From Pseudomonadota bacterium (lineage in GTDB: Bacteria > Bdellovibrionota_G > JALEGL01 > DATDPG01), in the NCBI GenBank assembly GCA_043809315.1, contig JAZDDX010000043.1, forward strand, positions 1 through 34,605: a stretch of 34,605 nt of DNA, written 5' to 3'. Each line of letters opens with the position of its first letter. Position 1 is the first letter of the stretch. The translations under genes were made by a program, and so were the position numbers. The notes beneath the pieces were generated by a model that saw only the letters and a program-made list of their open reading frames with translations, was not told where the DNA came from and did no database searches. Positions 2,938 to 16,467 of this stretch are shown one piece after another.

Positions 2938-2963
2938 CCGTCTACCCAAAGGAAGAAAAGCAG

Positions 2964-3497
2964 ATGGATCAACCCTCAGACAAGATGGAACAACGAGTAA
3001 AAGGACTCTTCCGGCAGGCGGAGCAGGTTCCTCTGGAACCGTCCCCCTTCTTGAAAACGCGAGTTCTGGCTCATGTGCGTGAAGCCCGAGCCAAGACGGT
3101 CGGTTTCCGCTGGAAGATGTGGGCATTGGCCAGTTCGACGGCCAGCCTTCTTTTGCTCTCGGTTCTTTTCTGGCCCGCGCGGTCGTCTTTGACGGCCCTG
3201 GTGGATCAACGGGTCCTCGTGCGGGTGGAGGTGGAGGCTCTCGAAGGCAGCAACGTCGCGTACGCGACCGTGGAACTGCCGGACGGGGTTTCCTTCGTTT
3301 CAACGAAATATCCGGAAATCCAAAAGGCACATGAGGTGCGCTTGGCCTGGATGCCGGAGTTCGAGAACCGTGGATTGCCGGTCGTCGTTCGAGCGACCTC
3401 GGTGGGAAAAAAAACCATCCGCATATTTCTTTTCGACCGTAACGATACGGTTCTGAAGGCCAAGGAAGTAACCATCACGTTCCGGGGAGCGGCGTAG
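2964..3497 (+). CDS. putative membrane anti-sigma factor (single TM)
   Basis: 177-aa ORF 27 nt downstream of the ECF sigma gene with an AAGGAAG Shine-Dalgarno. One TM helix (WALASSTASLLLLSVLFW) and a periplasmic C-terminal domain. No zinc-finger motif seen; the role is inferred from position. Confidence 0.55.
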   Translation: MDQPSDKMEQRVKGLFRQAEQVPLEPSPFLKTRVLAHVREARAKTVGFRWKMWALASSTASLLLLSVLFWPARSSLTALVDQRVLVRVEVEALEGSNVAYATVELPDGVSFVSTKYPEIQKAHEVRLAWMPEFENRGLPVVVRATSVGKKTIRIFLFDRNDTVLKAKEVTITFRGAA

Positions 3498-3527: not shown

Positions 3528-4064
3528 ATGAAAAAACGAAATCTATGGAGCGGGATCGCGGTAAGCGCTCTCTTGTTGGCTCCGGTCGCCTCTTGGGCGG
3601 CGTCCGACGATCAAGTCGTCCAGGCTACCACCGAGGACGTCAAGGCGTTTGAAAACGCCGTCATGGAGAAGAACCAGGCTCGGGATCAAGTGCGCGAACG
3701 GGATCGGCTCCAAGAGCATCAGGCGACTGGATCGGCGGTGCAGGAGAAAGCCCGCATCCGGACCGAAAAGGCCGCGCGTACGAAGACAGGCCTGGGTGAG
3801 GTGGTGTCGGAGGAAGCGAAGAAGCTGAAGAATGCGGATCCGGCGACCCGGAACAAGTTCGGCGAGCAGGTTCGCGAGCGGGCCCGTCAACGGGAAGAGA
3901 CGCAGGAGCAAGCCCAGACCCGGCAACGGCAGGGGTGGGATGCCGTGCGTGACACGACCGTTCAGAGCGGCCAGCGGAACGGTGTGGACGCAGGCGCGGG
4001 CAGCGGAAGCGCGACGTCCGGCTCAGGAAGCGGGCAACAGAACGGCACTCAGCAGCACAAATAG
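3528..4064 (+). CDS. secreted low-complexity charged (Q/E/R-rich) protein
   Basis: 178 aa. AAGGGAAG Shine-Dalgarno. Signal peptide MKKRNLWSGIAVSALLLAPVASWA|AS. Highly charged coiled-coil-like body and a GSGS-rich C terminus. Last gene of the ECF cluster, followed by a terminator. Confidence 0.6.
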   Translation: MKKRNLWSGIAVSALLLAPVASWAASDDQVVQATTEDVKAFENAVMEKNQARDQVRERDRLQEHQATGSAVQEKARIRTEKAARTKTGLGEVVSEEAKKLKNADPATRNKFGEQVRERARQREETQEQAQTRQRQGWDAVRDTTVQSGQRNGVDAGAGSGSATSGSGSGQQNGTQQHK

Positions 4065-4093: not shown

Positions 4094-4137
4094 CCCCCGG
4101 GTTTCGAGGAATCCCCTCGGAACCCGGGGTGTGTTTT
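4094..4137 (+). terminator. Rho-independent terminator (15-bp GC stem, AATC loop, TGTGTTTT tail)
   Basis: CCCCCGGGTTTCGAGG-AATC-CCCTCGGAACCCGGGG-TGTGTTTT, read directly. Near-perfect inverted repeat with one G.U wobble, 30 nt after the stop at 4064. Confidence 0.65.
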
Positions 4138-4164
4138 GAAAGGACCGTTTTCGAAGGAGTCTCT

Positions 4165-4208
4165 GGTCACATAGGGTACTACTGGCTGCACGCGGGGGAC
4201 GGCAAAAC
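4165..4208 (+). repeat. intergenic repeat copy 1 (GGTCACATAGGGTACTACTGGCTGCACGCGGGGGACGGCAAAAC)
   Basis: First of 8 same-orientation copies. Lies between the terminator and the 3' end of the minus-strand lipoprotein gene. Most similar to copy 2 (shared CTGGCTGC and GACGGC variants; upstream AAGGACC). Confidence 0.9.
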
Positions 4209-4290
4209 TTTAGTCGTCAGTCGGCCGGCTGCGCGGTGCCAAAAAGCCGAAACTCCGGTTCGGCCCGCCAGCGAACGAAAGGAACGACCG

Positions 4291-4683
4291 TCAATCGGGC
4301 CACGAGACCGTCAGATCAGCCGAGCTACCTGATTGCTTCATCCCGCAGGCCTGTATGGTCTCCTCGAGAGTCTTTGCGGTGGACACACAGATCACGAGCG
4401 TTCGCTTCTGTTTCGCGCAGACTTCAAAGTTCCGTGGATCCGCGCCTTCCAGGCCCGTCGACTCATCGATCCTCTTGAGCTGTGCGTCCATGTCCTTTTG
4501 AGCGTCAGCGGCGGCAGGCGACTCCAGATTGATGTTCTTCTTCATTTGCTTGACGACGTACTTGCCCAGAAGCTTGCTCAGATTGCCCACCGCCTGTTGG
4601 CATTCTTCCGGGCTTGCTTTCTTCGCGCAGGCTAGGATCGTGCAGAGCCCGAAAACCGCTAGGATTACGAATCTCGTACGCAC
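4291..4683 (-). CDS. Cys-rich lipoprotein, unknown function
   Basis: Track ORF is 4291..4740. I prefer the GTG at 4683 (AGGT 7 nt upstream), which gives an 18-aa signal ending in the lipobox ILAC|AKK. The track start would give a 37-aa signal. The mature part has 4 further Cys. Confidence 0.55.
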   Translation of the reverse strand: MRTRFVILAVFGLCTILACAKKASPEECQQAVGNLSKLLGKYVVKQMKKNINLESPAAADAQKDMDAQLKRIDESTGLEGADPRNFEVCAKQKRTLVICVSTAKTLEETIQACGMKQSGSSADLTVSWPD

Positions 4684-4936
4684 GGCAGCTACCTTATCAC
4701 GGGTCTGTTTCGCCGCGAACGGCGACGTATACCTAGGCACCTTGGAATTTCAGCGTTCCCGATACTAAGATGGGCCGGGAATGCCGCGAGTTTCCGCATC
4801 GACCTTTCCCGAATGACGTTCCGCGAGTTCCATCGGCACAGCGAGGTTCTGGCCTCTGCCCTCTGGGCGTTCGACATCGTGAAGATCGGGCATCGGCGGG
4901 AAGTTTGCGAAGAGTAGGGCCTTTTTCAAGGACCAT

Positions 4937-4980
4937 GGTCACGTAGGGCACTGCTGGCTGCGCAGAAGGGACGGCGTTGC
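4937..4980 (+). repeat. intergenic repeat copy 2 (diverged: GGTCACGTAGGGCACTGCTGGCTGCGCAGAAGGGACGGCGTTGC)
   Basis: Aligns to copy 1 over its whole length. The 5' end forms a perfect 10-nt palindrome GACCATGGTC (4932-4941). Lies in the divergent region between the lipoprotein gene and the FGE-domain gene. Confidence 0.8.
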
Positions 4981-5054
4981 CAATGTTCTGGAGCCATCCC
5001 ACTCTTATTCCGATACGATGAGAATGAAGTCGGTCCTTCACGATTGGAGGGAAG

Positions 5055-6095
5055 GTGAGAGTCTCTCGGACTTTAGCAACGATTCAGACTCTTCTGGTGA
5101 TCGGTTTTCTTTGCGGCTGCTCGAGCAGCAGCGCTCCTATCGTTGCTGATCCCACCCCAACACCACCTCCGACCCCGACGGCGGGCGCAACGGCTACCCC
5201 GACGCCGACCGCAACTCCGACGTCGACCGTAACCCCAACCCCAACCCCGACGCCCACCATTCCGTCCTGCGTCGGAGGGTTGATGTGCAATTCCGCCAGT
5301 TGTTGTTCGTCTCACGAGATCCCGGCTGGGAGTTACACGATGGGGGCCCCCAACGCCGACGGAAGCTATGCTGCCGACACCAAGCCGCAGCATACGGCCA
5401 CCATCGCCAGGTTCGTTCTTGATGACTTTGAAGTGACCGTGGGACGGTTCCGTACGTTTGTCGCAGTCTATACCGGTGCGGCCCCCGCGACGGATTCCGG
5501 AGCCAATCCGGAAATCGTCGGGTCCGGATGGAGTGCCGGGTGGAACGCTTCGCTCCCAGCTGGCGCGGCGAATCTGATAACGGCATTGAAGTGCAGCGGC
5601 TACACCTGGACCGATACTGTCGGGGCCAACGAGAACCGCCCGATCAATTGCGTGACTTGGTACGAAGCCTTCGCGTTCTGCATTTGGGACCAGGGACGTC
5701 TGCCCACGGAAGCGGAGTGGGAGTACGGCGCGAAGGGTGGGGCGGAAGATCGGCTCTATCCGTGGGGATCCCCGATCGATGCATCTTATGCCTGCTACTC
5801 CGGGTGCTCTCTAGGAGATGTCGGATCGTATCCGGCCGGCATCGGGAAATGGAACCAGCTCGACCTGGCCGGGAACCTCGCGGAGTGGACCTTGGATTAC
5901 TATGCCGCCGACTGGTACTCGGGTGCCGGAGATCCGTGCTCGAATTGCGCCAACCTCTCCGGGGTGAACCGTTTGGTACGAGGCGGTTCGTCGTTGACCA
6001 ATACCGATGGTCTGCGTAATCCGACCAGGGCCAACTTGTCGCCGAGTTCCCGGACCTCAACGACTGGATTCCGGTGCGCCCGAGCCGCGCCGTAA
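5055..6095 (+). CDS. FGE-sulfatase (SUMF1/EgtB/PvdO-type) domain lipoprotein with Pro/Thr-rich linker
   Basis: GTG start with GGAGGG Shine-Dalgarno. Lipobox VIGFLCGC. Linker PTPTPPPTPTAGATATPTPTATPTSTVTPTPTPTPT. FGE-domain motifs NCVTWYEAFAFCIW, RLPTEAEWEYGAKGG, RGGS...R. Confidence 0.8.
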   Translation: MRVSRTLATIQTLLVIGFLCGCSSSSAPIVADPTPTPPPTPTAGATATPTPTATPTSTVTPTPTPTPTIPSCVGGLMCNSASCCSSHEIPAGSYTMGAPNADGSYAADTKPQHTATIARFVLDDFEVTVGRFRTFVAVYTGAAPATDSGANPEIVGSGWSAGWNASLPAGAANLITALKCSGYTWTDTVGANENRPINCVTWYEAFAFCIWDQGRLPTEAEWEYGAKGGAEDRLYPWGSPIDASYACYSGCSLGDVGSYPAGIGKWNQLDLAGNLAEWTLDYYAADWYSGAGDPCSNCANLSGVNRLVRGGSSLTNTDGLRNPTRANLSPSSRTSTTGFRCARAAP

Positions 6096-6114
6096 GTCAG
6101 AACGCCATGTTCGT

Positions 6115-6158
6115 GGCCATATAGGGTACTCCTGGCTACACGCGGGGGACGCCAAATC
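6115..6158 (+). repeat. intergenic repeat copy 3 (..GGCCATATAGGGTACTCCTGGCTACACGCGGGGGACGCCAAATC)
   Basis: 20 nt after the FGE stop. Its last base is the first base of the reverse-complement TAG stop (cta 6158-6160) of the minus-strand gene 6158..6709. Confidence 0.9.
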
Positions 6159-6709
6159 TAGTCCTTGAGACTTCGCAAGAACTCCAAATCCTGCATATCA
6201 GCGGGATTCTTTCTGTCTCTTACCGCGATTTCCTTCATGGTGATCAGGTCTTTCTTGTCAGCGATGAGGAACGGGTGAGACTTGATGGTCTTTCTTCGGG
6301 CTCGCTGAGCGACGCCTCTTGCCGGGATCGGAAAGTCGAATAGAAGATCGACCCTCAGATCGAGATCGCGGTTGAAAAAGTGCGCGCTCTTCGGTGGATC
6401 CATGTTGAGCTTTGCATAGGCCACATTCGCATTATCCACCGTACGCACGATGTTGCCGCGCTCGTCCAGCTTCGAGACGAGCTCAAGTCCGTGCTTGTAG
6501 AAGACCTTCATCAACTCCTTATTCTTCCGAGCGTCCGCCTCGATCAGGAAATCAAAGTCCTTTGTTACGCGGTTCGATTCAAGCAGTGCCAGAGCCATGC
6601 CACCGACAAGGGTAGGGGAGTAGCCCAGCTTCATCACATCCTCGATGAGCTCCCCGACCGATTCGGCGAGGCTTTTCCGTCGCAATATCTTCTTGGGCCT
6701 AGTTTTCAT
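6158..6709 (-). CDS. nucleotidyltransferase-fold protein (MNT/AbiEii-like), possible toxin-antitoxin or defence-type component
   Basis: 183 aa. Minimal nucleotidyltransferase motif VGGMALALLESNRVTKDFDFLIE (hG[GS]x9-13 [DE]h[DE]h). Visibly lower GC than its neighbours. 9-nt gap from the upstream small ORF, suggesting an operon. Confidence 0.65.
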   Translation of the reverse strand: MKTRPKKILRRKSLAESVGELIEDVMKLGYSPTLVGGMALALLESNRVTKDFDFLIEADARKNKELMKVFYKHGLELVSKLDERGNIVRTVDNANVAYAKLNMDPPKSAHFFNRDLDLRVDLLFDFPIPARGVAQRARRKTIKSHPFLIADKKDLITMKEIAVRDRKNPADMQDLEFLRSLKD

Positions 6710-6718
6710 CGGAGCCCG

Positions 6719-6919
6719 TCACGACTCGGCACCACGGAGTTCTCGAATGGCGTCCAAGTGTTCGAAGTTGCTCTGGATCCGTTTCGCGAGTCGTAGAGAT
6801 TCCATCCGAGCTTTGACTCCAAGTCTGGCGATTTCCTGACGACGATCACTCGGCAGCCGTTTCGCCCTTGTGAGCCCGCCCTTTCTACCCATAATTTTGG
6901 CCATTTCCGACACGGTCAT
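6719..6919 (-). CDS. small basic protein (66 aa), putative DNA-binding or antitoxin-like partner of the nucleotidyltransferase
   Basis: ORF MTVSEMAKIMGRKGGLTRAKRLPSDRRQEIARLGVKARMESLRLAKRIQSNFEHLDAIRELRGAES. Start uncertain (ATGs at 6919, 6904 and 6892, none with a good Shine-Dalgarno). Function is inferred from the pairing only. Confidence 0.4.
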   Translation of the reverse strand: MTVSEMAKIMGRKGGLTRAKRLPSDRRQEIARLGVKARMESLRLAKRIQSNFEHLDAIRELRGAES

Positions 6920-6952
6920 AATCTCAATGTTAACTTATCGCTAAGTAAAATA

Positions 6953-6971
6953 CAAGGTCGGCGGCGTTGCC
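6953..6971 (+). repeat. degenerate fragment of the repeat 3' end (CAAGGTCGGCGGCGTTGCC, compare copy 2 GAAGGGACGGCGTTGCC)
   Basis: Lies 18 nt upstream of copy 4. It resembles the variant 3' end of copy 2, suggesting a decayed tandem copy. Confidence 0.4.
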
Positions 6972-6988
6972 TGGGGATCGAGACTTAG

Positions 6989-7031
6989 GGTCACATAGGG
7001 TACTACTGGCTACAAGCGGGGGACGCCAAAC
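6989..7031 (+). repeat. intergenic repeat copy 4 (GGTCACATAGGGTACTACTGGCTACAAGCGGGGGACGCCAAAC)
   Basis: Ends 1 nt before the reverse-complement TGA stop (tca 7032-7034) of the methyltransferase gene. Followed by GTTAGCC at 7040-7046. Confidence 0.9.
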
Positions 7032-7895
7032 TCACGTTAGCCGAAGAAGAGTCCTTCCCAATCCCCACTCTGCTCTCGCATTTGGAAGACGTGCCCATTC
7101 CAGGAGCTCGAACAAAACCTGTTTGAGGTCGCATGGCAGCTTAAAGAGGCGGGCCCCGACCACGTGCCCTAAAAATGCATGTCGAACGTACATCTCAACC
7201 TCGGCGGGGGTGGTGAAAAGGGTTCTCAGGTGTTCGATTTTCACCACCGAAAAGCCGTGATTCGACGCCGAGTCAACGAGCCTCTCTTCGACCTTCCTCT
7301 GATTGCCCTGCCCCTGTTTGGAACCAAGAGATTCCCGAAGGCGATTCATTACCGGTGCGGGAGGATCCTCGCGCCAGTATTCGTCCAATGCGTCCAGGAC
7401 GTGCAGAACTCCTCCTCGCTCTAGCACCCGCCTTGCGGTCTCGAGAAAACGATCGTGATCATCGAGATGCTGCAGAAGCGCACGAGCGATCGCGTAACTG
7501 AACGGGCCCCCCGAAAAATCGTAGACATCTTGCTGATGGAGGGCGCAATTAGAAAATGACCCCAACCTCTCGGCAGCGGCAACGAGTAACTCGGGGCTCC
7601 GGTCCACGCCGGCGTAAGTCTTTTCCGGGAAAACTGAACAAAGACGCTCGATCAAATGTCCGGGGCCGCACCCAAAATCGACCACCGTTTTCGCGCTCTT
7701 CCAGTCCGCGTCCCGTGACAGGAACTTCTGCAGCTCTTTCCATGTTCCGGCCATCTGAATTTCAAGAACGACTTCGTAGATCTCCTCCGTTCTTGCGTGT
7801 TTCAGAACGTCGAGATGGCGGGCAGGACTTTCGGAGAAATCGGCCAGGCGAACGGTTGCGTTGAAGCCGTACTGGCGGGCAATCGGGTTATCCAT
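7032..7895 (-). CDS. class I SAM-dependent methyltransferase
   Basis: Motif I VVDFGCGPGHL and post-I acidic D (AGVDRS). Track ORF extends to 8144, but that 83-aa R/S-rich N-extension overlaps the esterase gene and contains a repeat fragment. ATG at 7895 (MDNPIARQYGF...) gives a typical 288-aa enzyme. Confidence 0.7.
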   Translation of the reverse strand: MDNPIARQYGFNATVRLADFSESPARHLDVLKHARTEEIYEVVLEIQMAGTWKELQKFLSRDADWKSAKTVVDFGCGPGHLIERLCSVFPEKTYAGVDRSPELLVAAAERLGSFSNCALHQQDVYDFSGGPFSYAIARALLQHLDDHDRFLETARRVLERGGVLHVLDALDEYWREDPPAPVMNRLRESLGSKQGQGNQRKVEERLVDSASNHGFSVVKIEHLRTLFTTPAEVEMYVRHAFLGHVVGARLFKLPCDLKQVLFELLEWARLPNARAEWGLGRTLLRLT

Positions 7896-8006
7896 CCACC
7901 AAGACGCTATGCCAGATCTCGAAAGACGGCGAGAAATAGAACGTGGACCACTAGCGTTTTGGATGGGACCAGATCTACCACGTACACGGATAGACGACGA
8001 ATCCCG

Positions 8007-8021
8007 TCGGGGACGCCAAAC
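8007..8021 (+). repeat. truncated repeat copy (CGGGGACGCCAAAC, the 3' ~15 nt only)
   Basis: In the 212-bp spacer between the esterase and methyltransferase genes. Matches the 3' end of the core. The 5' part is decayed (CTACCACGTACACGG versus GCTACACGCGGGGG). Confidence 0.5.
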
Positions 8022-8107
8022 TTTGATTTCCGTGGGGGAATCGCGATGAGAGACGCACGCGTCAACGAGGGTTGCCGCCCCAAAAATAGGGTTTCGATCA
8101 CGACGAG

Positions 8108-8869
8108 TTAGGCTGCTTCGACCGCCGCCAGCACTTCTTTCCACGGCTCGCTGTGCGGATCGATCAATTCAAAGTGGCCACACTTCAAGACTTCCACCAG
8201 TTGAACGTCCTCGCCCCTTATCTTCTTAGATTCGACGTATCTTCGGCTAAAGTCGTTGGGAACTACATCGTCCTCGGTGCCGTGGACGAGCCATTGCTTT
8301 GCCTGTGCGATTGGAAGTGTCATCGGGTCGGCTTTCACATAGCGTTCCGGCACTTGATCGGGCTTCCCGCCCATGAATTCGGCTGTGGCATCCTTGGAGA
8401 GATGTAAGTCGAAGGCAGCCCGCAGATCCACCACTCCGGCGAGCGAGATTACGCGCTTCACGGAAGGCTCATGTGCCGCGAGGCACAGTGCCAGATGTCC
8501 TCCTGCGGAGAACCCCATGACGACCACTTTGCGAAGATCGAAGTGATATTGGTTTGCCACTTGGCCGATGTGTCGATAAGCGGCGGCAATGTCTTCAAAT
8601 GTTCCTGGCCATCCACCACCTGGATCTCCCACGCGCCGATATTCGACGTTCCAGGTGGCAAAGCCTTTTTCTGTGATTGAAGCGCAAAGGTGCTCGGCTT
8701 CAGCGAGGTCGTATTTGTTGCGCCAGAAGCCGCCATGGATGTTCATCATCACGGGAAAAGGTCCCTTCCCTCCGGGAAGACGAAGATCGGCGAAGTGCTG
8801 CGGCGCGGTCCCATAGAACACACGCGCGGTTGCCGGTGGCGGGGCAAGCCTGACGGTGTCCTGTGTCAC
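8108..8869 (-). CDS. alpha/beta-hydrolase esterase/lipase family protein
   Basis: Oxyanion-hole motif NIHGGFW and nucleophile elbow GFSAGGHLA, with C-terminal HGTEDDVVP and GHFEL (catalytic Asp/His). 253 aa; GTG start at 8869 is uncertain. Confidence 0.8.
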   Translation of the reverse strand: MTQDTVRLAPPPATARVFYGTAPQHFADLRLPGGKGPFPVMMNIHGGFWRNKYDLAEAEHLCASITEKGFATWNVEYRRVGDPGGGWPGTFEDIAAAYRHIGQVANQYHFDLRKVVVMGFSAGGHLALCLAAHEPSVKRVISLAGVVDLRAAFDLHLSKDATAEFMGGKPDQVPERYVKADPMTLPIAQAKQWLVHGTEDDVVPNDFSRRYVESKKIRGEDVQLVEVLKCGHFELIDPHSEPWKEVLAAVEAA

Positions 8870-8981
8870 AACGGCGCGATTAGATCACGGATTGTGAGTG
8901 TCGGCCACGTCTGCGCCGCCAACGACCGGTCGCATGAATCTTCACTTGACACGAAAGACGCTCGTGGAATGAAGTTGGACG

Positions 8982-9653
8982 ATGACGAACTCACGGCACT
9001 TTTCCGAAGAAGAAGTCCACGCGCTTGCCCGGGATGCGTACGAAAGGGGCGTCTGCGAGTTCCCGGTGATGCCGGGTCGGTCGGCCCTCTTGGTCATCGA
9101 CATGCAGGAGGAATTCGTGAAGCCCAATTGGACGCCCTACTGGGTGCCCGCCGCCACCCGGATTGTCCCGCGGATCGCGCGACTCCTGGAATCCTGCCGC
9201 AACCTGGGCGTTCCCGTGATCTTCACGGCGTTTGGTTCGACCCACCGGTTTCTGGATCGGCCCCTCACCGGGTCCCTGATGCCGAACCGGTACGCGCGCA
9301 TTCCGCACGACTCCTCCTGGTTCCGCGAGGGAAAGATCGTGGCGTCGCTTGAGCCGCGATCGGAAGAAATCACGATTTTGAAGCCGTCGTACGGTGCCTT
9401 CTATGACACCCCGCTGGAGACCGTCCTGAAGAATCTTGGTCGGGACACGGTGATCATCAGCGGCACGCTGACGAACTTCTGTTGTGGTATGACCGCTCGG
9501 CAGGCCTATGAGCGAGGCTTCCACGTGGTTTTCGGAGCCGACGTGACGGCCTCCGACGATGCCGAGATGCACGAGAACGAACTGAAGAACCTGCGCAAGG
9601 GTTTCGCGAGGGTGATGACAGCGGAGGAAATCCTTGTGGCGCTGGGGGCCTGA
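8982..9653 (+). CDS. isochorismatase-family (cysteine) hydrolase
   Basis: ATG start. SALLVIDMQEEFV motif with catalytic Asp context, and C-terminal TNFCCGMTARQAYERGFHVV with catalytic Cys. 223 aa. Confidence 0.85.
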   Translation: MTNSRHFSEEEVHALARDAYERGVCEFPVMPGRSALLVIDMQEEFVKPNWTPYWVPAATRIVPRIARLLESCRNLGVPVIFTAFGSTHRFLDRPLTGSLMPNRYARIPHDSSWFREGKIVASLEPRSEEITILKPSYGAFYDTPLETVLKNLGRDTVIISGTLTNFCCGMTARQAYERGFHVVFGADVTASDDAEMHENELKNLRKGFARVMTAEEILVALGA

Positions 9654-9723
9654 CCGCTGCCCACAGTCGACGCACTTTCGCCTCCGTCCCATAGACCGGA
9701 TTTCGCCCTCAAACGGAACATAT

Positions 9724-9766
9724 GGTCACGCAGGGTACTACTGGCTACACGCAGGGGACGCCAAAC
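9724..9766 (+). repeat. intergenic repeat copy 5 (GGTCACGCAGGGTACTACTGGCTACACGCAGGGGACGCCAAAC)
   Basis: 70 nt after the isochorismatase stop and about 40 nt before the true N-terminal coding region of manA. 5' near-palindrome GAACATATGGTC. Confidence 0.9.
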
Positions 9767-9950
9767 TGGATGGGTGGGACGTTGTTTTGGCCCGTGATCA
9801 GCGTAAGAGTACTGGATCGACCCCATTCAAACACCTCTGTATCCACTGCGATTTGAACCGATTTATGAATATCGGCTCTGGGGTGGACGGCGTTTAGCCG
9901 AAATACTCAACGCCTCGCTACCGAGTGACGGCCCGATCGGTGAAGCGTGG

Positions 9951-10817
9951 GTGCTCAGCGACCGCGATGACCATTCAAGTCGCGTAGCCAATGGACCGCT
10001 CAAAGGAAGGATGATCGGCCAACTGCTTCAACAGTTTCCGGAGCAAATGCTGGGAAAGTCAGCCCAACGATTTCGTCGATTTCCCCTGTTGCTGAAGTTC
10101 CTGGATGCACGTGAAATGCTTTCAGTCCAGGTGCATCCAACGGATGCCGATACGAACCTGCTGCCCGCGAACGAGACTGGAAAGACGGAAGCATGGGTTG
10201 TGATGGAAGCGGGCGCGGAAAGTCGCATCTATGCGGGCTTGAATCCAGGGACTACTACGGACGGACTTCGGCAGGCACTGGAAAACGGGGCGATTGCGGA
10301 TCATCTGGCCAGCTTTACGCCAAGACCGGGCGACGGCATTTTCATTAGAGCCGGGACCGTTCACTCGTTGGGCGACGTTGTGGTGTTTGAGGTACAGGAA
10401 AACAGCGATGTCACGTTTCGCCTATACGACTGGGACCGTGTCGACGGCAAAACGGGCCGGCCTCGCGCTCTGCAAGTCGATCAGGCGATGGCCTGCATTG
10501 ATTTTGCCCAAGGTGCGGTTGTCCCTGTGGTGCCGGTGGTGGAAGAAACAAAGCCGGCGCTTCGAGAGCGGCTCGTCTTATGTGAGAATTTTGGCTTGTG
10601 GCGACTCCGTGGAGAATCACCATTCAAGGTCGGTGCAGAGGGAGTTCTGCGTATGTTGGTGTGCATCGTCGGCGACGGTGAGGTGGAATACAAGGGCTCC
10701 CAATATGCCGTCGGAACCGGCGACGTGCTGCTCCTGCCGGCGGTGGTCGGAGCGTGTGGTTTTCAGCCGCGCGGGGCCGTGACCTTGTTGGAAGTTTCGC
10801 TACCGTTGGAACGATAG
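9951..10817 (+). CDS. manA: mannose-6-phosphate isomerase, class I (N-terminus uncertain; homology extends upstream to about 9807-9816)
   Basis: The same frame upstream of the GTG at 9951 encodes PIQTPLYPLRFEPIYEYRLWGGRRLAEILNASLPSDGPIGEAWVLSD, the conserved type-I PMI N-terminal segment. There is a TAA at 9804-9806 and no ATG/GTG/TTG before 9951. Downstream motifs LSVQVHP..D and ENFGLWRL support the PMI call. Confidence 0.75.
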   Translation: MLSDRDDHSSRVANGPLKGRMIGQLLQQFPEQMLGKSAQRFRRFPLLLKFLDAREMLSVQVHPTDADTNLLPANETGKTEAWVVMEAGAESRIYAGLNPGTTTDGLRQALENGAIADHLASFTPRPGDGIFIRAGTVHSLGDVVVFEVQENSDVTFRLYDWDRVDGKTGRPRALQVDQAMACIDFAQGAVVPVVPVVEETKPALRERLVLCENFGLWRLRGESPFKVGAEGVLRMLVCIVGDGEVEYKGSQYAVGTGDVLLLPAVVGACGFQPRGAVTLLEVSLPLER

Positions 10818-10859
10818 GGGGCTTTGCTCCTAGCATCTCGGCCCCCAAGGGCGTAGAAG

Positions 10860-13139
10860 ATGCGTGTGACGGAAGCTCCGAGCACCTCAGGGATCAAGCG
10901 GATCGCAGTGATCGGCGACTATCTTCCGCGTCAATGCGGGATCGCGACGTTCACCACGGATCTCTGCGAAGCCCTTTCCACGCAGTTCCCCCAGACTCAG
11001 GTGTTCGCCGCCCCCGTGAACGATACGGACGACGGGTACGACTATCCTTCCCGGGTGCGTTTTGAGATCGAGCAGGACGATCTTTCTTCGTATCGGCGAG
11101 CCGCGGATTTTCTGAACATCAACAACGTCGACATCGTTTCTGTCCAACATGAATACGGGATCTACGGGGGGAAGGCGGGAAGCCACATTCTGGCGCTCCT
11201 AAGCGAGCTCCGGATGCCGGTGGTCACGACGCTTCACACGATTCTAGAGAATCCGGATCCGAACCAGAAGAAAGTGATGGAAGAACTGACGAAGCTCTCG
11301 GATCGGCTGGTGGTGATGAGCCAGCGTGCCGTGAAGTTTCTCGAAGAGATCTACCTTGTCCCATCGAACCGGATTCAGATGATCCACCACGGGACGCCCG
11401 ATGTCTCGTTCGTGGATCCCAATTTTCACAAGGACCGCTTCGGCGTGGAGGGGAAGTCCGTTCTTCTCACATTCGGGTTACTCTCGCCCAGCAAGGGAAT
11501 TGAATACGTGATCGAGGCGCTTCCGGCGATTCTGGCCCGGTTTCCCAACCTGGTCTTCATCGTGGTAGGGGCGACGCATCCGAACGTTCTCAAGCAGGAC
11601 GGGGAACTTTATCGTCTCAAACTGGAGCGGCTGGCTGCGGACCTGGGAGTGAGTCAGAACGTCGTTTTCCACAATCGCTTCGTGGATCTCGAGGAACTGG
11701 TGGAGTTCATCGGGGCTGCGGATCTCTACGTGACGCCGTATTTGAACCGCGAGCAGATCTGTTCGGGAACGCTCGCCTATACGGTATCGGCCGGGAAGCC
11801 GGTGATTTCCACGCCGTATTGGTATGCCGAGGAACTTCTTGCCGAGGGCCGGGGCGTCTTGGTTCCCTTTCGGGACTCGAAAGCCATTGCAGGTCGCGCG
11901 ATTGAACTTCTTGAGACGGAAGCCGACCGACATGCCATTCGCAAGAGAGCGTATCTCTTCGGTCGTGAGATGATCTGGCCGAAGGTGGCTTCCGCATACA
12001 TGCAGACCTTTGAAGAAGTACGCGACCACCGGTTGCGGCGGCCGAAGCCCTTTACGGTCCGAACGCTGGATCAGCGGCCCGCCGAATTGCCTCCGTTGTC
12101 TCTGAAGCATCTATATCGACTCACCGATGAAACCGGCCTTTTTCAGCATGCGATTCACACCATCCCCAACTATCGGGAGGGATATACGACCGACGACAAC
12201 ACCCGGGGCTTGATTCTTACTGTGCTTCTCGAGGATCTCGGGGAAGAAGAAGAAGTCCTGGAAACGGAAGACCTTCCGGCTCGGTATATGGCCTTCGTGA
12301 TGTACGCGTACAATTCCGAAATCGGCCGCTTTCGGAACTTTCTCGGATTCGACCGGCACTGGTCGGAAGACAAGGGTTCGGACGACAGCCATGGGCGCGC
12401 GCTCTGGGCCTTAGGGAGCATGTCGGGCCGGTCGCGGGATGTCGAACGGGCCGCTTTGGCAGGACAACTGTTCAACACGGCTCTGAAGGCGATGAAAGAT
12501 TGCACGAGCCCGCGCTCGTGGGCCTTCACGCTTCTCGGGCTGCACGATTATCTCAAACGGTACGCGGGGGACCGCGAAGCCCGTCAGATGCAGGAGATGC
12601 TCGCCGGACGTCTGATGGAGATGTTTACACGCAACGCGTCCGAGGAGTGGCGGTGGTTTGAGGACGTTCTCACGTACTCGAATGCCACGCTCGCTCAGGC
12701 GCTCTTTGTCTCGGGTTCCGCTTTGGGAAAACCCGAATACATCGAAACGGGGCTGCGGGCGCTTACGTGGCTGGGCTCCATCCAGGGGGCCAACGACAGC
12801 CACTTCATTCCGATCGGGTCCACGGGATTCTACCGCCGGGGAGGCGAGCGGGCGCGCTTCGATCAACAGCCGATCGAAGCGCAGACCATGATCTCCGCGT
12901 ACCTGGATGCCTATCGCATCACGGGGGACAAGAAATGGCAGAAAGACGCGCAGCGAACGTTTGAATGGTTTCTGGGCCGCAACGACTTGCGACTTCCGCT
13001 TTATGATCCTGCCACCGGCGGCTGTCGGGACGGGCTTCATTCCGATCGTGTGAACCAAAACCAGGGGGCCGAGTCGACGTTGGCGTTCCTGATGGCGCTC
13101 TTAGAACTCAAGTTGGCCGACCAAGTGCTGCAAATCTAG
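10860..13139 (+). CDS. bifunctional-looking glycosyltransferase family 4 (N-terminal) + (alpha/alpha)6 six-hairpin glycosidase-like domain (C-terminal)
   Basis: N-terminus KRIAVIGDYLPRQCGIATFTTDL plus GT4 core (FGLLSPSKGIEY, E...GLVLLEA-like YVTPYL..SGTLAYTVSAGKPVISTPY). C-terminal ~350 aa (WAFTLLGLHDYL, WRWFEDVLTYSNATLAQAL, ESTLAFLMALLEL) reads as a glycoside-hydrolase six-hairpin barrel (GH63/GDE_C-like). The domain families are my inference. Confidence 0.75.
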   Translation: MRVTEAPSTSGIKRIAVIGDYLPRQCGIATFTTDLCEALSTQFPQTQVFAAPVNDTDDGYDYPSRVRFEIEQDDLSSYRRAADFLNINNVDIVSVQHEYGIYGGKAGSHILALLSELRMPVVTTLHTILENPDPNQKKVMEELTKLSDRLVVMSQRAVKFLEEIYLVPSNRIQMIHHGTPDVSFVDPNFHKDRFGVEGKSVLLTFGLLSPSKGIEYVIEALPAILARFPNLVFIVVGATHPNVLKQDGELYRLKLERLAADLGVSQNVVFHNRFVDLEELVEFIGAADLYVTPYLNREQICSGTLAYTVSAGKPVISTPYWYAEELLAEGRGVLVPFRDSKAIAGRAIELLETEADRHAIRKRAYLFGREMIWPKVASAYMQTFEEVRDHRLRRPKPFTVRTLDQRPAELPPLSLKHLYRLTDETGLFQHAIHTIPNYREGYTTDDNTRGLILTVLLEDLGEEEEVLETEDLPARYMAFVMYAYNSEIGRFRNFLGFDRHWSEDKGSDDSHGRALWALGSMSGRSRDVERAALAGQLFNTALKAMKDCTSPRSWAFTLLGLHDYLKRYAGDREARQMQEMLAGRLMEMFTRNASEEWRWFEDVLTYSNATLAQALFVSGSALGKPEYIETGLRALTWLGSIQGANDSHFIPIGSTGFYRRGGERARFDQQPIEAQTMISAYLDAYRITGDKKWQKDAQRTFEWFLGRNDLRLPLYDPATGGCRDGLHSDRVNQNQGAESTLAFLMALLELKLADQVLQI

Positions 13140-13160
13140 AACCGGAACGGGAGAAACTGC

Positions 13161-14132
13161 ATGAGCCAGGGGCAAAAGGAATACGACGCTCTTTTCGTTC
13201 GGAGTGAAAAGAATCCCATTCTCTCGGCCGCCGATTGGCCGTACGCCGTCAACAGCGTCTTCAACGCCGGGGCGACGCGCTTACTGGACGGAACCACGCT
13301 CCTTTTGTGCCGCGTGGAGGATCGCACTGGGCACTCGCATCTCTGTGCCGCGCGTTCGAAGAACGGTGTCGACGGTTGGCAAGTTGATTCTCAACCGACG
13401 ATGAAACCCGATATGGAAGGTCATCCCGAGGAGATCTGGGGAATTGAAGACCCCCGAATCACGTACCTTCCGGAATTAAAGAAATATGCGGTCGTGTACA
13501 CGTCGTTTTCGCGAGGCGGTCCGGGAGTCTCGATCGCCTTGACCGAGGACTTTCATCTGTTCGAACGTCTGGGGGTCGTGATGCCTCCCGAAGACAAGGA
13601 CGCGGCACTTCTTCCCCATCGGATGGATGGGCGCTGGGTTTTGATTCATCGCCCCTCCACGCCTCTGGGGTCGCATATCTGGAGCTCGTACTCGCCCGAT
13701 CTCCGGCATTGGGGGGACCACAAGCTTGTCCTTCAAGCCCGCCGGGGAGCCTGGTGGGATGCCAACAAGATCGGACTCAACACGCCGTTGATCGAGACTC
13801 CTCGGGGTTGGCTGATGATTTATCACGGCGTTCGAAACACCGCCGCTGGGGGCGTCTATCGCCTGGGGCTTGCACTCCTCGATCCGAAATGTATCGAACA
13901 TTGTCTTCTGCGAGGGGAAACGTGGATCTTCGGCCCTGAAGCGAATTATGAACGGGAAGGGGACGTGGGGAACGTTGTCTTCCCATGTGGGCTCACCATC
14001 GCCCCGGACGGGGACACGATTCATCTCTATTATGGAGCGGCGGATACGTGCATCGCCTTGGCTCACGCGAGCGTTCGAAAGTTGTTGGGTTGGCTGGAAC
14101 GAAACGGCCGTCCGGAGCGTTTTCCGTTGTAA
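13161..14132 (+). CDS. GH130-family beta-mannoside phosphorylase/glycosidase
   Basis: Motifs NPIL..ADWPYAVNSVFNAGA, EDPRITYL, YAVVYTSFS, GWLMIYHGV, and C-terminal HLYYGAADTCIALA, typical of GH130 (5-bladed beta-propeller). 22 nt after the GT gene, so operonic. Confidence 0.85.
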   Translation: MSQGQKEYDALFVRSEKNPILSAADWPYAVNSVFNAGATRLLDGTTLLLCRVEDRTGHSHLCAARSKNGVDGWQVDSQPTMKPDMEGHPEEIWGIEDPRITYLPELKKYAVVYTSFSRGGPGVSIALTEDFHLFERLGVVMPPEDKDAALLPHRMDGRWVLIHRPSTPLGSHIWSSYSPDLRHWGDHKLVLQARRGAWWDANKIGLNTPLIETPRGWLMIYHGVRNTAAGGVYRLGLALLDPKCIEHCLLRGETWIFGPEANYEREGDVGNVVFPCGLTIAPDGDTIHLYYGAADTCIALAHASVRKLLGWLERNGRPERFPL

Positions 14133-14176
14133 GCCCGGCATAGGGTACTCCCGGCTACACGCGGGGGGCGCCAAAT
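14133..14176 (+). repeat. intergenic repeat copy 6 (GCCCGGCATAGGGTACTCCCGGCTACACGCGGGGGGCGCCAAAT)
   Basis: Starts directly after the GH130 TAA stop. Lacks the GGTCAC 5' end; core conserved. Confidence 0.9.
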
Positions 14177-14212
14177 GCAGTTGGCAGTCTCGGCAACCCT
14201 TCCCGGGGGCAC

Positions 14213-15211
14213 TTGACACGCAGCAGCGCTTCCCAATACGCTTTGTTTCGCATGGGTTGGGGACGAAAGAGCCTTTTCGCGATCGCCGTTACGATCACTC
14301 TTCCCACGCAAGCTCCATCCATCCCGTCCCCGCCGAGCGACAGCCTCACGGCGATGTTGGCGCGCACATCGCCGAATTTCTACGGGCCGAACTGTTTCAA
14401 CACCGTGCTGCTGGCTACAGGAGTCCTTCCCTTCGATGACGTGCGCTACGTCGATTCGGACGAATTCGAGTTTCTGTTGCGCCTTGATTTCGACCTGGTT
14501 AAAGGCGAGCCGCGGCGGGGGGACGTCGTCCTCTACAGCGCGTCGGACAAGCGGAATCATGCGGCGGTCTACCTCGGGGAGGGGCGCGTCTTCCACAAGA
14601 AGGATTGGTACTCCGCGTATGTCTATCGCGAGGTTGGAATCGACGAGGTCTTCTCCTACGAACCGGGGGACGACCATCCTCGAAGGCCTGAAGATCCGAT
14701 CCCGACTTGGAGTCGTGAGGAGATCGTAGACCGTGAGTTCTACCGACCGAAAGGTTCCCTTTTTTCTTACGTGGTCCCTTTCGAGCTGCGCCCCGCGGAG
14801 CAAGTTCTTTCGTACGTGCACGCGGCCGTGCTCGAGTACGGTCCGCGCTGGAAAGTGGGGGATATTCTGGGGATCGTGACGGAAGATCTGATGAGCTCGA
14901 TCTGGTCGCGAATGTCCGAGGTGCCAGCGCTCGCCGTCCTTGCCAAGAGCCTGCACAATCAGGTGTATAAGAGCATCGTCGCCGAGCATTTCGCCTCCAT
15001 CTTTGCCGATCGGGAGCGGATCGAACGCAAGATCTATTTCAAGGACAACGAGTTCCTTCGCACGCTGATCCAGCTCGTGAGCCAGATGGAGGGGGTTGAC
15101 GCGGACCTCGATGGCGTCATCGCATGCCTGGAGGCGGACCGAACTAAGCGACGCCTGAGCCTTCCGGAGGCGGTGCGTGAGGCAGCCGGCGTTCCGGGGA
15201 CATACCACTGA
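14213..15211 (+). CDS. secreted hypothetical protein; N-terminal papain-like (NlpC/P60-type Cys..His..His) hydrolase candidate + helical C-terminal domain
   Basis: 332-aa ORF (TTG at 14213; possible ATG at about 14352). Signal-like N-terminus. Candidate catalytic arrangement NCFNTV ... GDVVLYS..HAAVYLGEGRVFH. Function is inference only. Confidence 0.5.
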   Translation: MTRSSASQYALFRMGWGRKSLFAIAVTITLPTQAPSIPSPPSDSLTAMLARTSPNFYGPNCFNTVLLATGVLPFDDVRYVDSDEFEFLLRLDFDLVKGEPRRGDVVLYSASDKRNHAAVYLGEGRVFHKKDWYSAYVYREVGIDEVFSYEPGDDHPRRPEDPIPTWSREEIVDREFYRPKGSLFSYVVPFELRPAEQVLSYVHAAVLEYGPRWKVGDILGIVTEDLMSSIWSRMSEVPALAVLAKSLHNQVYKSIVAEHFASIFADRERIERKIYFKDNEFLRTLIQLVSQMEGVDADLDGVIACLEADRTKRRLSLPEAVREAAGVPGTYH

Positions 15212-15227
15212 AGCCAAATTAACCGAT

Positions 15228-15280
15228 GGTCACGTAGAGTGCCGTTGGCCGCGCGCGGGGGGCGTCATCGGAACGTCGGG
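15228..15280 (+). repeat. intergenic repeat copy 7, long subfamily (GGTCACGTAGAGTGCCGTTGGCCGCGCGCGGGGGGCGTCATCGGAACGTCGGG)
   Basis: 17 nt after the stop at 15211. 51/53 identical to copy 8. Contains the perfect palindrome CCGCGCGCGG. Confidence 0.9.
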
Positions 15281-15325
15281 TCCTTTTGCCGTCGCGCTTC
15301 GTTCCCATTTGCTCGCGCGTAATTG

Positions 15326-15353
15326 TTTCACGGACCCTGACTCCTGATATGGT
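15326..15353 (+). promoter_or_regulatory. candidate sigma70-like promoter for the SPFH operon (TTTCAC-16-TATGGT)
   Basis: Seen in the AT-richer spacer 30 nt upstream of the AAGGAG Shine-Dalgarno of the gene at 15384. Purely a sequence-pattern call. Confidence 0.25.
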
Positions 15354-15383
15354 AGGTTTTCATCGCAAGATAAGGAGCCCCCA

Positions 15384-16208
15384 ATGAACCAGATCGAAAG
15401 CGCTGTTCACAACTTAGTTCCGAAATTTATTCCCGTAGCCGTCGTGATTTTTTTGTTAATCGTCATGGCCGCGGCGGGAACCTTCATCATCCCGCCAGGT
15501 CATCGAGGTGTTCTTGTCACGATGGGAAAGGTTTCAGCAGCGTTTGCCCCTGAGGGTTTTGGGTTTAAGACTCCTTTTATTACGACGATTGTTCCGATAT
15601 CGATTCGACAACAGACGAAACCCGCGCAAGCGGATTGCTACTCCTCCGATCTTCAACAAATCAGCGTGGAGCTGAGAGTTCTTTATCGGATTCCCGAGAG
15701 CATGATTGTAAGAATCTTTCAGGATTACTCGGGTGATCCGTTCGACAGCCTGATTGCACCAAGAGTTAGTGAGGCTCTTAAAGAAGTCGCCGCACTACAG
15801 AGCGCCGAGCAGATTGTGAAAAAACGCGAGGAGATCAAAGCGAAAGCGCTCGCAGCCGCTCGTGTAAAAGTGGGGAACCTCCTCGTCATCGAGGATATCG
15901 TTATACAAAACGTTTCGTTATCAAAAGAGCTCGAAGCGGCCATTGAGGCTAAGATGGTTCAGGAGCAAGAAGCCGCAAAGGCCAAGTTTGTGCAACAAAA
16001 GGCGGAAATCGAGGCCAATACAGCCGTCATCAAAGCGAAGGGGGAAGCCGAGGCGATTCGAGTTCGCGGGAAGGCTTTGCAGGACAACCCGGGTCTCGTC
16101 CAACTTCAAATTGTTGAAAAATGGAACGGGATCTCGCCCCTTGTGGTGGGAGGCGGTAGCGGAGGCGCGAATATTCTTCTTCCGATTGGGGATCCCCGGG
16201 GGCGCTAA
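15384..16208 (+). CDS. SPFH/band-7 (prohibitin/HflKC-like) membrane protein
   Basis: ATG with AAGGAG Shine-Dalgarno. N-terminal TM helix (FIPVAVVIFLLIVMAAAG), SPFH core (IIPPGHRGVLVTMGKV...), and C-terminal coiled-coil region (EAAIEAKMVQEQEAAKAKFVQQKAEIEANTAVIKAKGEAEA). Confidence 0.85.
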   Translation: MNQIESAVHNLVPKFIPVAVVIFLLIVMAAAGTFIIPPGHRGVLVTMGKVSAAFAPEGFGFKTPFITTIVPISIRQQTKPAQADCYSSDLQQISVELRVLYRIPESMIVRIFQDYSGDPFDSLIAPRVSEALKEVAALQSAEQIVKKREEIKAKALAAARVKVGNLLVIEDIVIQNVSLSKELEAAIEAKMVQEQEAAKAKFVQQKAEIEANTAVIKAKGEAEAIRVRGKALQDNPGLVQLQIVEKWNGISPLVVGGGSGGANILLPIGDPRGR

Positions 16209-16405
16209 TGAGACAGCCTCTTCGCGGTATTCTTCAAACTGTATTTCTCATTTTCTTTGCGTTGCTCCTCATCCGTTTTTTCCCTTTTGTGGTCCGAATT
16301 GGAGAAGCTGCCGCGTTGGGGTTGCGCGAATTTTGGTGGGGCATTCTGATCTTGGCGATGGCTTTGTGGTTTCTGTGGGTCTTTCGTAAACGAAAGATCA
16401 CGTAA
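16208..16405 (+). CDS. small two-TM membrane protein (65 aa), translationally coupled partner of the SPFH gene
   Basis: TAATG stop/start overlap. Two hydrophobic helices (ILQTVFLIFFALLLIRFFPFVV; WWGILILAMALWFLWVF) and a basic tail RKRKIT. Confidence 0.55.
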   Translation: MRQPLRGILQTVFLIFFALLLIRFFPFVVRIGEAAALGLREFWWGILILAMALWFLWVFRKRKIT

Positions 16406-16414
16406 TCGCTACGT

Positions 16415-16467
16415 GGTCCTGTAGAGTGCCGTTGGCCGCGCGCGGGGGGCGTCATCGGAACGTCGGG
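16415..16467 (+). repeat. intergenic repeat copy 8, long subfamily (GGTCCTGTAGAGTGCCGTTGGCCGCGCGCGGGGGGCGTCATCGGAACGTCGGG)
   Basis: 10 nt after the stop at 16405. Last copy in the window; nothing similar in 16.5-34.6 kb. Confidence 0.9.

Follow-up and report, generated by a model that had tools for sequence, protein, structure and literature searches.

What kind of element divides a run of unrelated genes into small modules when no integrase is seen beside them? The question is raised by a stretch of DNA of 34,605 nucleotides (34.6 kb; the window in what follows), which is one whole contig, JAZDDX010000043.1, of an NCBI metagenome-assembled genome (MAG) labelled 'Pseudomonadota bacterium'. 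About 12 kb of it are partitioned by eight copies of a short repeat, here called R, and an earlier note on this DNA, made from the sequence alone, likened the arrangement to an integron cassette array. The 3' half of R corresponds to the 3' end of a tRNA-Glu(UUC) gene together with its trailer, a feature absent from that note, and this homology points to the biology of attachment (att) sites at tRNA genes rather than to that of attC sites. The explanation favoured here, to which about an even chance is given, is that integrase-less modules have been inserted in tandem at att-like sites derived from tRNA-Glu(UUC), by a recombinase that is not among the genes seen.

The repeat and its relation to tRNA-Glu

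A covariance model of R was built from 15 aligned copies, eight from the window and seven from a relative, the MAG JAZDIZ01 (GCA_043804515.1), and was run over the window with its filters off. Exactly eight copies were found, all on the plus strand between 4161 and 16458, with 48-69 bits (E 1e-15 to 2e-10); these scores are partly circular because the same copies sat in the training set of the model. All eight places were also recovered by an independent repeat search of the window, and the core given in the earlier note, with up to three mismatches allowed, yielded five plus-strand matches, while 100 shuffles yielded none. The remainder of the window holds no further R, its next best model match reaching 10.6 bits (E 1.2), and neither the left 4 kb nor the right 18 kb has a copy. 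A weak 'copy' at 17872, returned by the repeat search, lies inside a coding sequence and fails the covariance model. The eight same-strand copies reported earlier, and their absence from both flanks, are thus borne out.

The first copy, R1 (4161-4208; 69 bits), has a conserved tail, AAAACTTTAGTCGTCAGTCGGCC, that extends to ~4226. It is placed 96 nt past the stop of a gene for a 178-aa secreted protein (3528-4064) and downstream of the terminator of that gene (4095-4129). R2 (4933-4980; 48.5 bits) is diverged in its 3' half and lies between divergent genes. R3 (6111-6158; 66 bits) begins 15 nt past the stop of a gene with an FGE-sulfatase domain, and its 3' end overlaps the stop codon of a minus-strand AbiEii-like gene, just as the 3' end of R4 (6985-7032; 66 bits) falls on the stop codon of a minus-strand methyltransferase gene. 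R5 (9720-9767; 66.5 bits) follows 66 nt past an isochorismatase stop, and R6 (14130-14177) overlaps the stop codon of a GH130 gene. R7 (15224-15271) and the last copy, R8 (16411-16458), which comes 5 nt past the stop of a 65-aa open reading frame (ORF), form a diverged subtype B and are identical over 47 nt (GTAGAG...GTCGGG, 15233-15279 in R7). The statement that all copies are intergenic is right in essence, but R6, R3 and R4 touch stop codons.

The repeat first described as ~45 nt long is real, but the alignment of its copies gives a longer unit of ~64-70 nt, in which a minimum of 48 nt is joined by ~12 nt of conserved 5' flank and a conserved tail of 15-20 nt. The consensus reads yTA-TGGTCAC-R-TAG, then GGGTACTnCTGGC-TACAC-GCGGGGGACGCC, then AAACTTTAGTYGTCAG. 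Its 5' part, which is specific to the family, is TGGTCAC-R-TAG with the left arm of an imperfect 30-nt hairpin, and its 3' part is (C)GGGGACGCCA followed by AACTTTAGTYGTCAG. Contig 38 of the relative (locus L012) carries, according to ARAGORN, genes for tRNA-Lys(UUU) and tRNA-Glu(UUC); the same program found no tRNA gene in the window. The tRNA-Glu gene of the relative has the 3' end ...CTCGTCGGGGACGCCA, followed by AACTTTGGTTTCCAG, and the right arm of the R hairpin with its tail is GCGGGGGACGCCA-AACTTTAGTYGTCAG. The block GGGGACGCCAAAC is identical in R and in this gene, and the similarity goes on for ~15 nt past the CCA into the trailer; by chance, ~1e-4 shared 13-mers would be expected between R and tRNA-Glu. 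In terms of the tRNA, (C)GGGGACGCCA is the acceptor 3' strand, discriminator base and CCA end of tRNA-Glu(UUC), and AACTTTAGTYGTCAG is the trailer. The possibility that R is an internally deleted tRNA-Glu was rejected, as its 5' 32 nt are unlike the rest of the tRNA (local alignment p ~0.8-0.9 against shuffles).

The relative also shows an array of R that begins directly at the tRNA-Glu gene. The order on L012 is tRNA-Lys, tRNA-Glu (9833-9910), a His-phosphatase gene, R (10806), a CDP-diacylglycerol diphosphatase-like gene (PF02611), R (11785), an RHH/ParE pair and R (12453), all elements of the array being in the same orientation. After the last R come ~330 nt of non-coding DNA and then a partial copy of the tRNA 3' end with trailer (~12830). 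One inverted R copy lies upstream of the tRNAs in this genome. A tRNA-derived site is likewise present in the window. The 'degenerate copy' that had been noticed near the methyltransferase gene is a real site, but it is not R; rather, it is a plus-strand 3' fragment of a tRNA-Glu(UUC) gene (7996-8035), which matches the 3' end of tRNA-Glu in the relative at 94%. The fragment runs from the T-loop (CGAATC) to the CCA and ~15 nt of trailer, has the same orientation as the R copies and sits with the methyltransferase gene on one side and the esterase gene on the other. It does not belong to the R family and looks like the classical att scar of an integration that targets the T-loop. Because the fragment is a genuine tRNA-Glu 3' end, the array of the window comprises nine sites and is linked by its history to a tRNA-Glu locus, even if the contig has no intact tRNA gene.

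The 30-nt hairpin in the middle part of the unit was proposed by RNAalifold. Its stem has 10 pairs with bulges, and the U-G pairs of the consensus exist on the plus strand only. On a MAFFT alignment of 15 copies the hairpin is 93% paired and three pairs are changed on both sides; one of 500 shuffles was as good, and slid controls were all worse. On a model-fitted alignment that includes the 16th, most diverged copy, it is 92.5% paired with two compensatory pairs, and the covariation score of the 16 copies was reached by 6 of 500 shuffles. Two independent compensatory events, each from G-C to A-U, are seen, one in subtype B and the other in a JAZDIZ01 copy that departs from the consensus core at those two positions only. 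The covariation support for the hairpin is suggestive, modest and not strong. Directly 5' of the hairpin stands (G/A/C)TAG, or GCAG in two copies, in all 16. Of the conserved stem on single-stranded DNA (ssDNA) for which the earlier note had suggested a check, only this internal hairpin is seen as a conserved structure, and the ssDNA fold energies of ten 76-nt copies are no better than those of shuffles (z -2.4 to +1.3, most of them positive). A rival stem, TGGTCA/TGGCTA (alignment columns 23-28 with 42-47), is 86% paired, no better than in shuffles, and was set aside. Rfam 15 gave no match over the whole window at gathering thresholds, and only one chance-level match to a long non-coding RNA at E<=10 over 1-20 kb. 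A promoter or terminator role was also rejected: R has no T-run, and the only strong terminator in the region precedes R1. Promoter-like sites in the region are fewer than in shuffles, and as a minus-strand promoter 14 of the 16 copies would drive antisense transcription.

The distribution of R is narrow. A 29-nt degenerate pattern that matches seven of the eight window copies was scanned in one genome each of ~185,000 species, and true matches occurred in one MAG only, JAZDIZ01, with three matches on two contigs. Pattern scans of metagenome, viral contig, plasmid and phage collections gave no true R match; five other genome or metagenome matches (L001, L002, L005-L007) were dismissed as chance matches in DNA of 68-74% GC. 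With the covariance model, JAZDIZ01 has eight R copies and one decayed copy: one on L003, four strong, one diverged and the decayed one on contig 38 (L004/L012/L015), and two on contig 84 (L008). The pattern scan fits three of the eight known JAZDIZ01 copies and hence counts ~threefold too low, and the genome of the window itself lay outside it. As far as these counts go, R appears to be lineage-restricted and not high-copy, and is probably not a family of hundreds of near-identical copies. Relatives with homologues of the glycosyltransferase (GT)-GH130 pair or of the NlpC/P60 gene of the window (L009, L010, L011, L013, L014) have no R, and protein look-ups with the GH130 and NlpC/P60 proteins of the window found no second contig. 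Between the two genomes R copies are up to 98% identical, as against 78-83% for orthologous genes, and because the identity of R exceeds that of the genes, its sequence is either constrained or recently spread.

Fourteen of the 16 copies of R lie -3 to 124 nt (median ~30) past the stop of a co-oriented gene (binomial p = 0.002), among them the opposite-strand copy of JAZDIZ01, which follows an opposite-strand gene. The exceptions, at 4933 and 6985, follow reversed genes, and one copy of the 16 lies between divergent genes. Toxin-antitoxin (TA) pairs adjoin R three times, namely in the window (6158-6919), on L003 (2701-3251) and on L012 (11956-12437).

Recombination at the repeat and the modules between its copies

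Evidence for exchange within R comes from two copies of the relative, one after the ParE gene and one after a DUF6448 gene (L004/L012), which are followed by the same downstream sequence for at least 205 nt. In this pair, the 29 nt of R ahead of the tRNA-like core hold four mismatches and the 205 nt from the core on hold one (Fisher p = 9e-4); hence the upstream gene takes the left part of R along with it, and the core and downstream sequence move separately. This distribution of mismatches places a recombination junction at the start of the tRNA-like core, within R. A second line of evidence is the SPFH module of the window, which lies exactly between R7 and R8, two copies that differ only at their 5' edges (first 8 nt). 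An insertion that passes through a site and duplicates it leaves such a pattern. The module (15272-16410) is a compositional outlier, with GC 0.507 and GC at third codon positions (GC3) 0.53-0.54, compared with ~0.58 and 0.70-0.80. The GC and GC3 of the SPFH gene and of the 65-aa ORF that overlaps it are below those of every other gene of the contig, which suggests a recent foreign origin.

Gene content also changes at R between the two genomes. The GT-GH130 genes are 83% identical in nucleotides between the window and L008 (9964-13267), and the homology ends at R in both. The R copies after GH130 have a common T-to-C change ('CCCGGC') that is found in no other copy, and they are orthologous because this change is unique to those two. 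Past GH130 and its R, the window has 6.2 kb before the NMO gene is reached, with the NlpC/P60 gene, the SPFH module, a lipoprotein gene, a methyltransferase-like gene and genes for a 361-aa protein and an RNA-binding protein, as compared with ~100 nt in the relative. Similarly, the NlpC/P60-like gene (65% aa identity) is followed by R in both genomes, and its homologue in the relative is found on a different contig and in the opposite orientation relative to the window. Behind the JAZDIZ01 gene a decayed, subtype-B-like R comes first and then a second R copy. Two gene-plus-R units, GH130 with R and NlpC/P60 with R, are thus common to both genomes in different contexts. The suggestion that the modules are cassette-like is partly supported, in that gene content changes at R, the junction lies inside R and units are reused, but an integron is not.

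The modules themselves carry one to three genes each, and the gene assignments made earlier agree with Pfam. Module 1 is a small lipoprotein-like ORF on the minus strand (4291-4740) with no Pfam match, reversed with respect to R, and module 2 is a plus-strand lipoprotein gene with the FGE-sulfatase domain (5055-6095; PF03781, E 5e-38). Module 3, on the minus strand, is a TA-like pair of an AbiEii-like nucleotidyltransferase (6158-6709) and a 66-aa partner (6719-6919), with GC 0.53; its match to PF08843 (E 4.5e-4, 20.7 bits) is under the 22.5-bit cut-off. Module 4 is an S-adenosylmethionine-dependent methyltransferase gene (7032-7895, minus strand; Pfam Methyltransf_12/25/11). Its start is likely the Met at ~7895, the longer ORF to 8144 being one that would cross the tRNA fragment. 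Module 5 combines a BD-FAE/alpha-beta hydrolase gene (8108-8869, minus strand) with the isochorismatase gene (8982-9653, plus strand), both by Pfam. The genes of the last three modules are all on the plus strand: module 6 holds a phosphomannose isomerase (PMI)-like cupin (9951-10817), a GT4 glycosyltransferase (10860-13139) and GH130 (13161-14132), module 7 an NlpC/P60-like protein (14213-15211), these two identified by Pfam, and module 8 an SPFH/Band-7 protein (15384-16208; PF01145) with the 65-aa ORF (16208-16405). The heterogeneous GC ascribed to the modules is real but modest (0.507-0.609 against 0.582 overall).

Some of these genes and their neighbours have features of their own. Of the catalytic domain of type I phosphomannose isomerase, only profile positions 50-112 are matched by the PMI-like ORF, which also has a weak cupin match; it is missing from the orthologous position of the relative and is perhaps a gene that is truncated or has diverged. 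The GT4-GH130 pair is found at 80-89% aa identity in five related assemblies (window 10860-14132; L008 10001-13266; L009 4851-8014; L010 2301-5041; L011 712-3980), and its left neighbours are all different: the PMI-like gene, citrate synthase, RNase H with insertion sequence (IS) fragments, a beta-helix protein and a DEAD helicase. Only three assemblies show a right neighbour, and it is another gene in each. In this lineage the pair is, even without R, unusually mobile or prone to rearrangement. Upstream of the GT gene of L009, a more distant relative, a 99-nt direct repeat with 90% identity (1655-1752 and 3767-3865), unrelated to R, lies among DDE transposase and IS66 fragments.

Just left of R1, a gene for a sigma factor of the extracytoplasmic function (ECF) type (2146-2937) precedes a 177-aa ORF that matches no family and is possibly an anti-sigma factor (the pair spans 2146-3497). 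To the right of the array and directly upstream of the NMO gene, the gene at 19991-20329, which encodes an RNA-binding protein by the look of its translation, has a Gly/Arg-rich tail made from imperfect 9-nt tandem repeats (20249-20316) and is absent at the equivalent locus of the relative. In the relative itself, the ~330-nt non-coding segment follows two different R copies and is >99% identical between them (L012 12501-12830 and 17666-17855, which equal L004 5166-5355 and 1-190). It opens with a strong intrinsic terminator, GCCGCCCACTCCGGTGGGCGGTTTCGTTTTG, its second copy runs into the contig end, and the segment may represent a gene for a small RNA or else a 'cassette' without coding content.

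Competing explanations of the array

Under the favoured explanation, the 12-kb region would be a patchwork of modules of one to three genes without an integrase, inserted successively at R sites, and R would be a recombination site of att-like character that arose from the tRNA-Glu(UUC) gene. The tRNA-like core would be the place of strand exchange. Once a module has been inserted, the left part of R would belong to the upstream module, and the core, the tail and whatever lies beyond to the next one. The tRNA-Glu gene itself might act as the first site of an array, and the recombinase would be supplied in trans, from a gene outside the window and the related loci. The anatomy of R, its tRNA homology, the position of the junction, the duplicated site around a foreign module and the reuse of gene-plus-R units were read directly from the DNA; to these the explanation adds that the exchange would be enzymatic and site-specific, not mediated by RecA between homologies of 45-70 nt, and that the modules would presumably pass through a circular form. 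If it is true, the lineage builds arrays of very small integrase-less modules at a tRNA-gene-end site, which would be a second bacterial way to package single genes for site-specific capture. R is short and well defined and its junction is mapped, so that a candidate recombinase would be open to direct testing.

Several points weigh against this explanation. Neither the 34.6 kb of the window nor ~51 kb of three JAZDIZ01 contigs yielded an integrase, Xer-like, serine-recombinase or HUH gene, and the modules and flanks looked at gave no site-specific integrase. The window contig has no tRNA-Glu gene, so that its array is not visibly anchored, and some R copies flank ordinary metabolic genes (prpC, GT-GH130, NMO). 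The modules, at 0.7-4.4 kb, are far below the size of described tRNA-associated islands. The two genomes are extensively rearranged also where R is absent, and breakpoints at R are weaker evidence because of these other rearrangements; moreover, ordinary (RecA-mediated) recombination between repeats of 45-70 nt would produce the same junction pattern. All that is concluded here draws on two MAGs.

The main rival, a tentative one that is somewhat unlikely on the evidence, holds that R is an element of the repetitive extragenic palindromic (REP) type with a GTAG tag, a unit of ~50-70 nt spread by a REP-associated tyrosine transposase (RAYT) or another HUH enzyme, or in an older burst. R would then persist downstream of genes, probably as an RNA or DNA hairpin, the modules would be ordinary genes, and the rearrangements at R would be by-products of homologous recombination between repeats. 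The definition of a GTAG REP is a terminal unpaired GTAG-like tetranucleotide beside a stem-loop of 6-13 bp (PMC3733652). In R, an unpaired (G/A)TAG stands directly 5' of an imperfect, bulged, G+C-rich stem of 12-13 bp with G-T pairs, and, as with GTAG REPs, the copies are extragenic and near upstream ORF stops, and divergent intergenic regions are avoided (PMC3733652, PMC2817692). R keeps close to the 3' end of the ORF before it, its distance to the ORF after it varies, and a single copy of 16 is found between divergent genes. GTAG REPs have been described with such placement; some of their families are made up mainly of single units, and one family is clustered at a small number of loci (PMC3733652). 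Core-type genes are flanked by some copies of R, and one copy on the opposite strand follows the orientation of its gene.

Other properties of R speak against a standard REP. Its copy number appears low, with three exact pattern matches in JAZDIZ01 (by the pattern that fits three of eight known copies). It is clustered, the eight copies of the 34.6 kb all lying within 12.3 kb with none inverted, and it forms neither inverted dimers nor clusters resembling bacterial interspersed mosaic elements. It is absent from 18 kb of core genes on the same contig. The conserved unit of 64-70 nt, about twice the length of a REP (20-40 bp), extends beyond the hairpin on both sides and is half tRNA-derived. 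The homology of its 3' half to tRNA-Glu and trailer, and an array that starts at the tRNA gene, are unpredicted by REP biology, and a foreign low-GC module is found exactly between two identical copies. Neither the window nor ~51 kb of the relative shows a RAYT. The REP-like element that the earlier note had listed as an alternative gains from the tetranucleotide beside the stem in 16 of 16 copies and loses from a unit that exceeds 20-40 bp, and it remains the main rival. If it were true, R would be a REP-like family with a hairpin arm recruited from a tRNA 3' end, a case of modest interest that bears on the origin of such repeats.

Less probable again, and unlikely, is a cassette system of a non-integron kind, in which a dedicated trans-acting enzyme, be it a tyrosine recombinase, a serine recombinase or an HUH enzyme, would have as its target a folded hairpin that mimics the tRNA acceptor stem. 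In such a system the cassette-borne arm would pair with the copy of the tRNA-Glu acceptor 3' strand, and the tRNA-Glu gene would be the primary docking site, in the role of attI in integrons. Units of one to three genes, tagged at their 3' end, would be captured and shuffled.

Quite improbable is the idea that R acts mainly as RNA, as a hairpin in the 3' untranslated region (UTR) that imitates the acceptor end of tRNA-Glu (stem with GCCA) and gives the upstream mRNA a signal for processing, stability or tagging, with a spread that would be secondary. It is suggested by the co-orientation of 14 of 16 copies with the upstream gene, by the plus-strand-only U-G pairs of the consensus stem and by the two independent compensatory changes from G-C to A-U, and two copies of the relative directly precede a strong intrinsic terminator, which puts R in a 3' UTR. 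However, R1 lies beyond the terminator of its upstream gene, two copies follow reversed genes, and subtype B lacks the CCA (it has GUCA) and keeps the pairing across it. The most diverged copy breaks three of the ten pairs, fold energies are no better than those of shuffles, Rfam gave no match, and the junction pattern and the duplicated sites are left unexplained. A role at the RNA level may nevertheless exist alongside either the att-like or the REP-like nature of R.

Last, an integron cassette array without integrase (attC sites in a cluster that has no integron integrase, CALIN), with R as its attC family, is rejected as having next to no probability: the sites do have one orientation and stand where mostly single-gene units have their 3' ends, the cargo includes TA pairs and lipoproteins, and the spacing of sites along one strand is mostly <4 kb, which is how a CALIN is defined, but no RYYYAAC...GTTRRRY pair 47-157 nt apart occurs on either strand in 3.5-17.5 kb, R ends in GCCAAAC/T without a matching partner, its palindromic part is only 30 nt inside a non-palindromic unit, the ssDNA fold z is ~0 to +1.3 for most copies, R is homologous to a tRNA gene end, and there is no intI and no PF00589 or other recombinase in Pfam scans of the substantial window ORFs, short pseudogene fragments not having been searched in six frames. 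The integron look of the array therefore does not hold, R having no R''/R' cores and no attC-sized foldable palindrome and the window no intI; the observation that neither intI nor GTTRRRY/RYYYAAC cores were visible agrees with the Pfam scans and the motif search.

Comparison with known systems

Arrays of modules without their own recombinase are known from other settings. The cis-mobilizable elements (CIMEs) are integrase-less and accrete. In the CTX/TLC arrays, which belong to the integrative mobile elements exploiting Xer (IMEX), modules without their own recombinase are placed in tandem at dif by the Xer recombinases of the host, and the folded hairpin of the CTX phage imitates the chromosomal target. 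In sequence, R appears unlike dif with its 11-6-11 architecture, and the anchor here is a tRNA gene.

In integrons, the attC site of 57-141 nt has an inverse core RYYYAAC (R'') and a core GTTRRRY (R') at its ends (PMC4889954). The array of the window resembles integron arrays and CALINs in its small, mostly single-gene units with a family-specific site at the 3' end of the ORF, and likewise in uniform orientation, TA cassettes, homogeneous lineage-specific sites and the lack of an adjacent integrase (PMC4889954). In contrast to them, R has no R/L-box architecture and no cores, its hairpin is 30 nt and not 57-141 nt long, it is homologous to a tRNA gene end, and some units have several genes, on both strands.

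The closest described situation is that of tandem islands at tRNA and tmRNA genes. The ssrA islands of Dehalococcoides lie in tandem, bounded by a 20-bp repeat of the ssrA 3' end and an adjacent conserved 15-bp motif on the element side, and about half of them have no integration module (PMC3146451). Islands associated with tRNA genes in general duplicate 15-221 bp of the 3' part of the tRNA, with crossovers in the anticodon loop, in the T-loop or at an asymmetric 3' end (bioRxiv 10.1101/2020.11.02.365908), and in one Klebsiella survey the smallest island with an integrase was 3.5 kb. As in such islands, the direct repeats of the present arrays copy the 3' end of the gene and, in the array on L012, lie in one orientation downstream of it, a conserved element-side motif stands beside the repeat, the junction is at the edge of the tRNA-identical block, the cargo consists of accessory genes, and many units have no recombinase of their own. 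The differences lie in scale and in the site itself. The units here measure 0.7-4.4 kb and hold one to three genes, as against ~3.5 to >100 kb, and at least 12 of them were seen, all without an integration module. In R, the block of identity runs from the acceptor 3' strand into the trailer, the element-side part pairs as a hairpin with the tRNA-derived part, and arrays of R are found also away from a visible tRNA-Glu gene, once inverted. If the favoured explanation is true, such an organisation would stand between the classical tRNA-associated islands and the cassette arrays of integrons.

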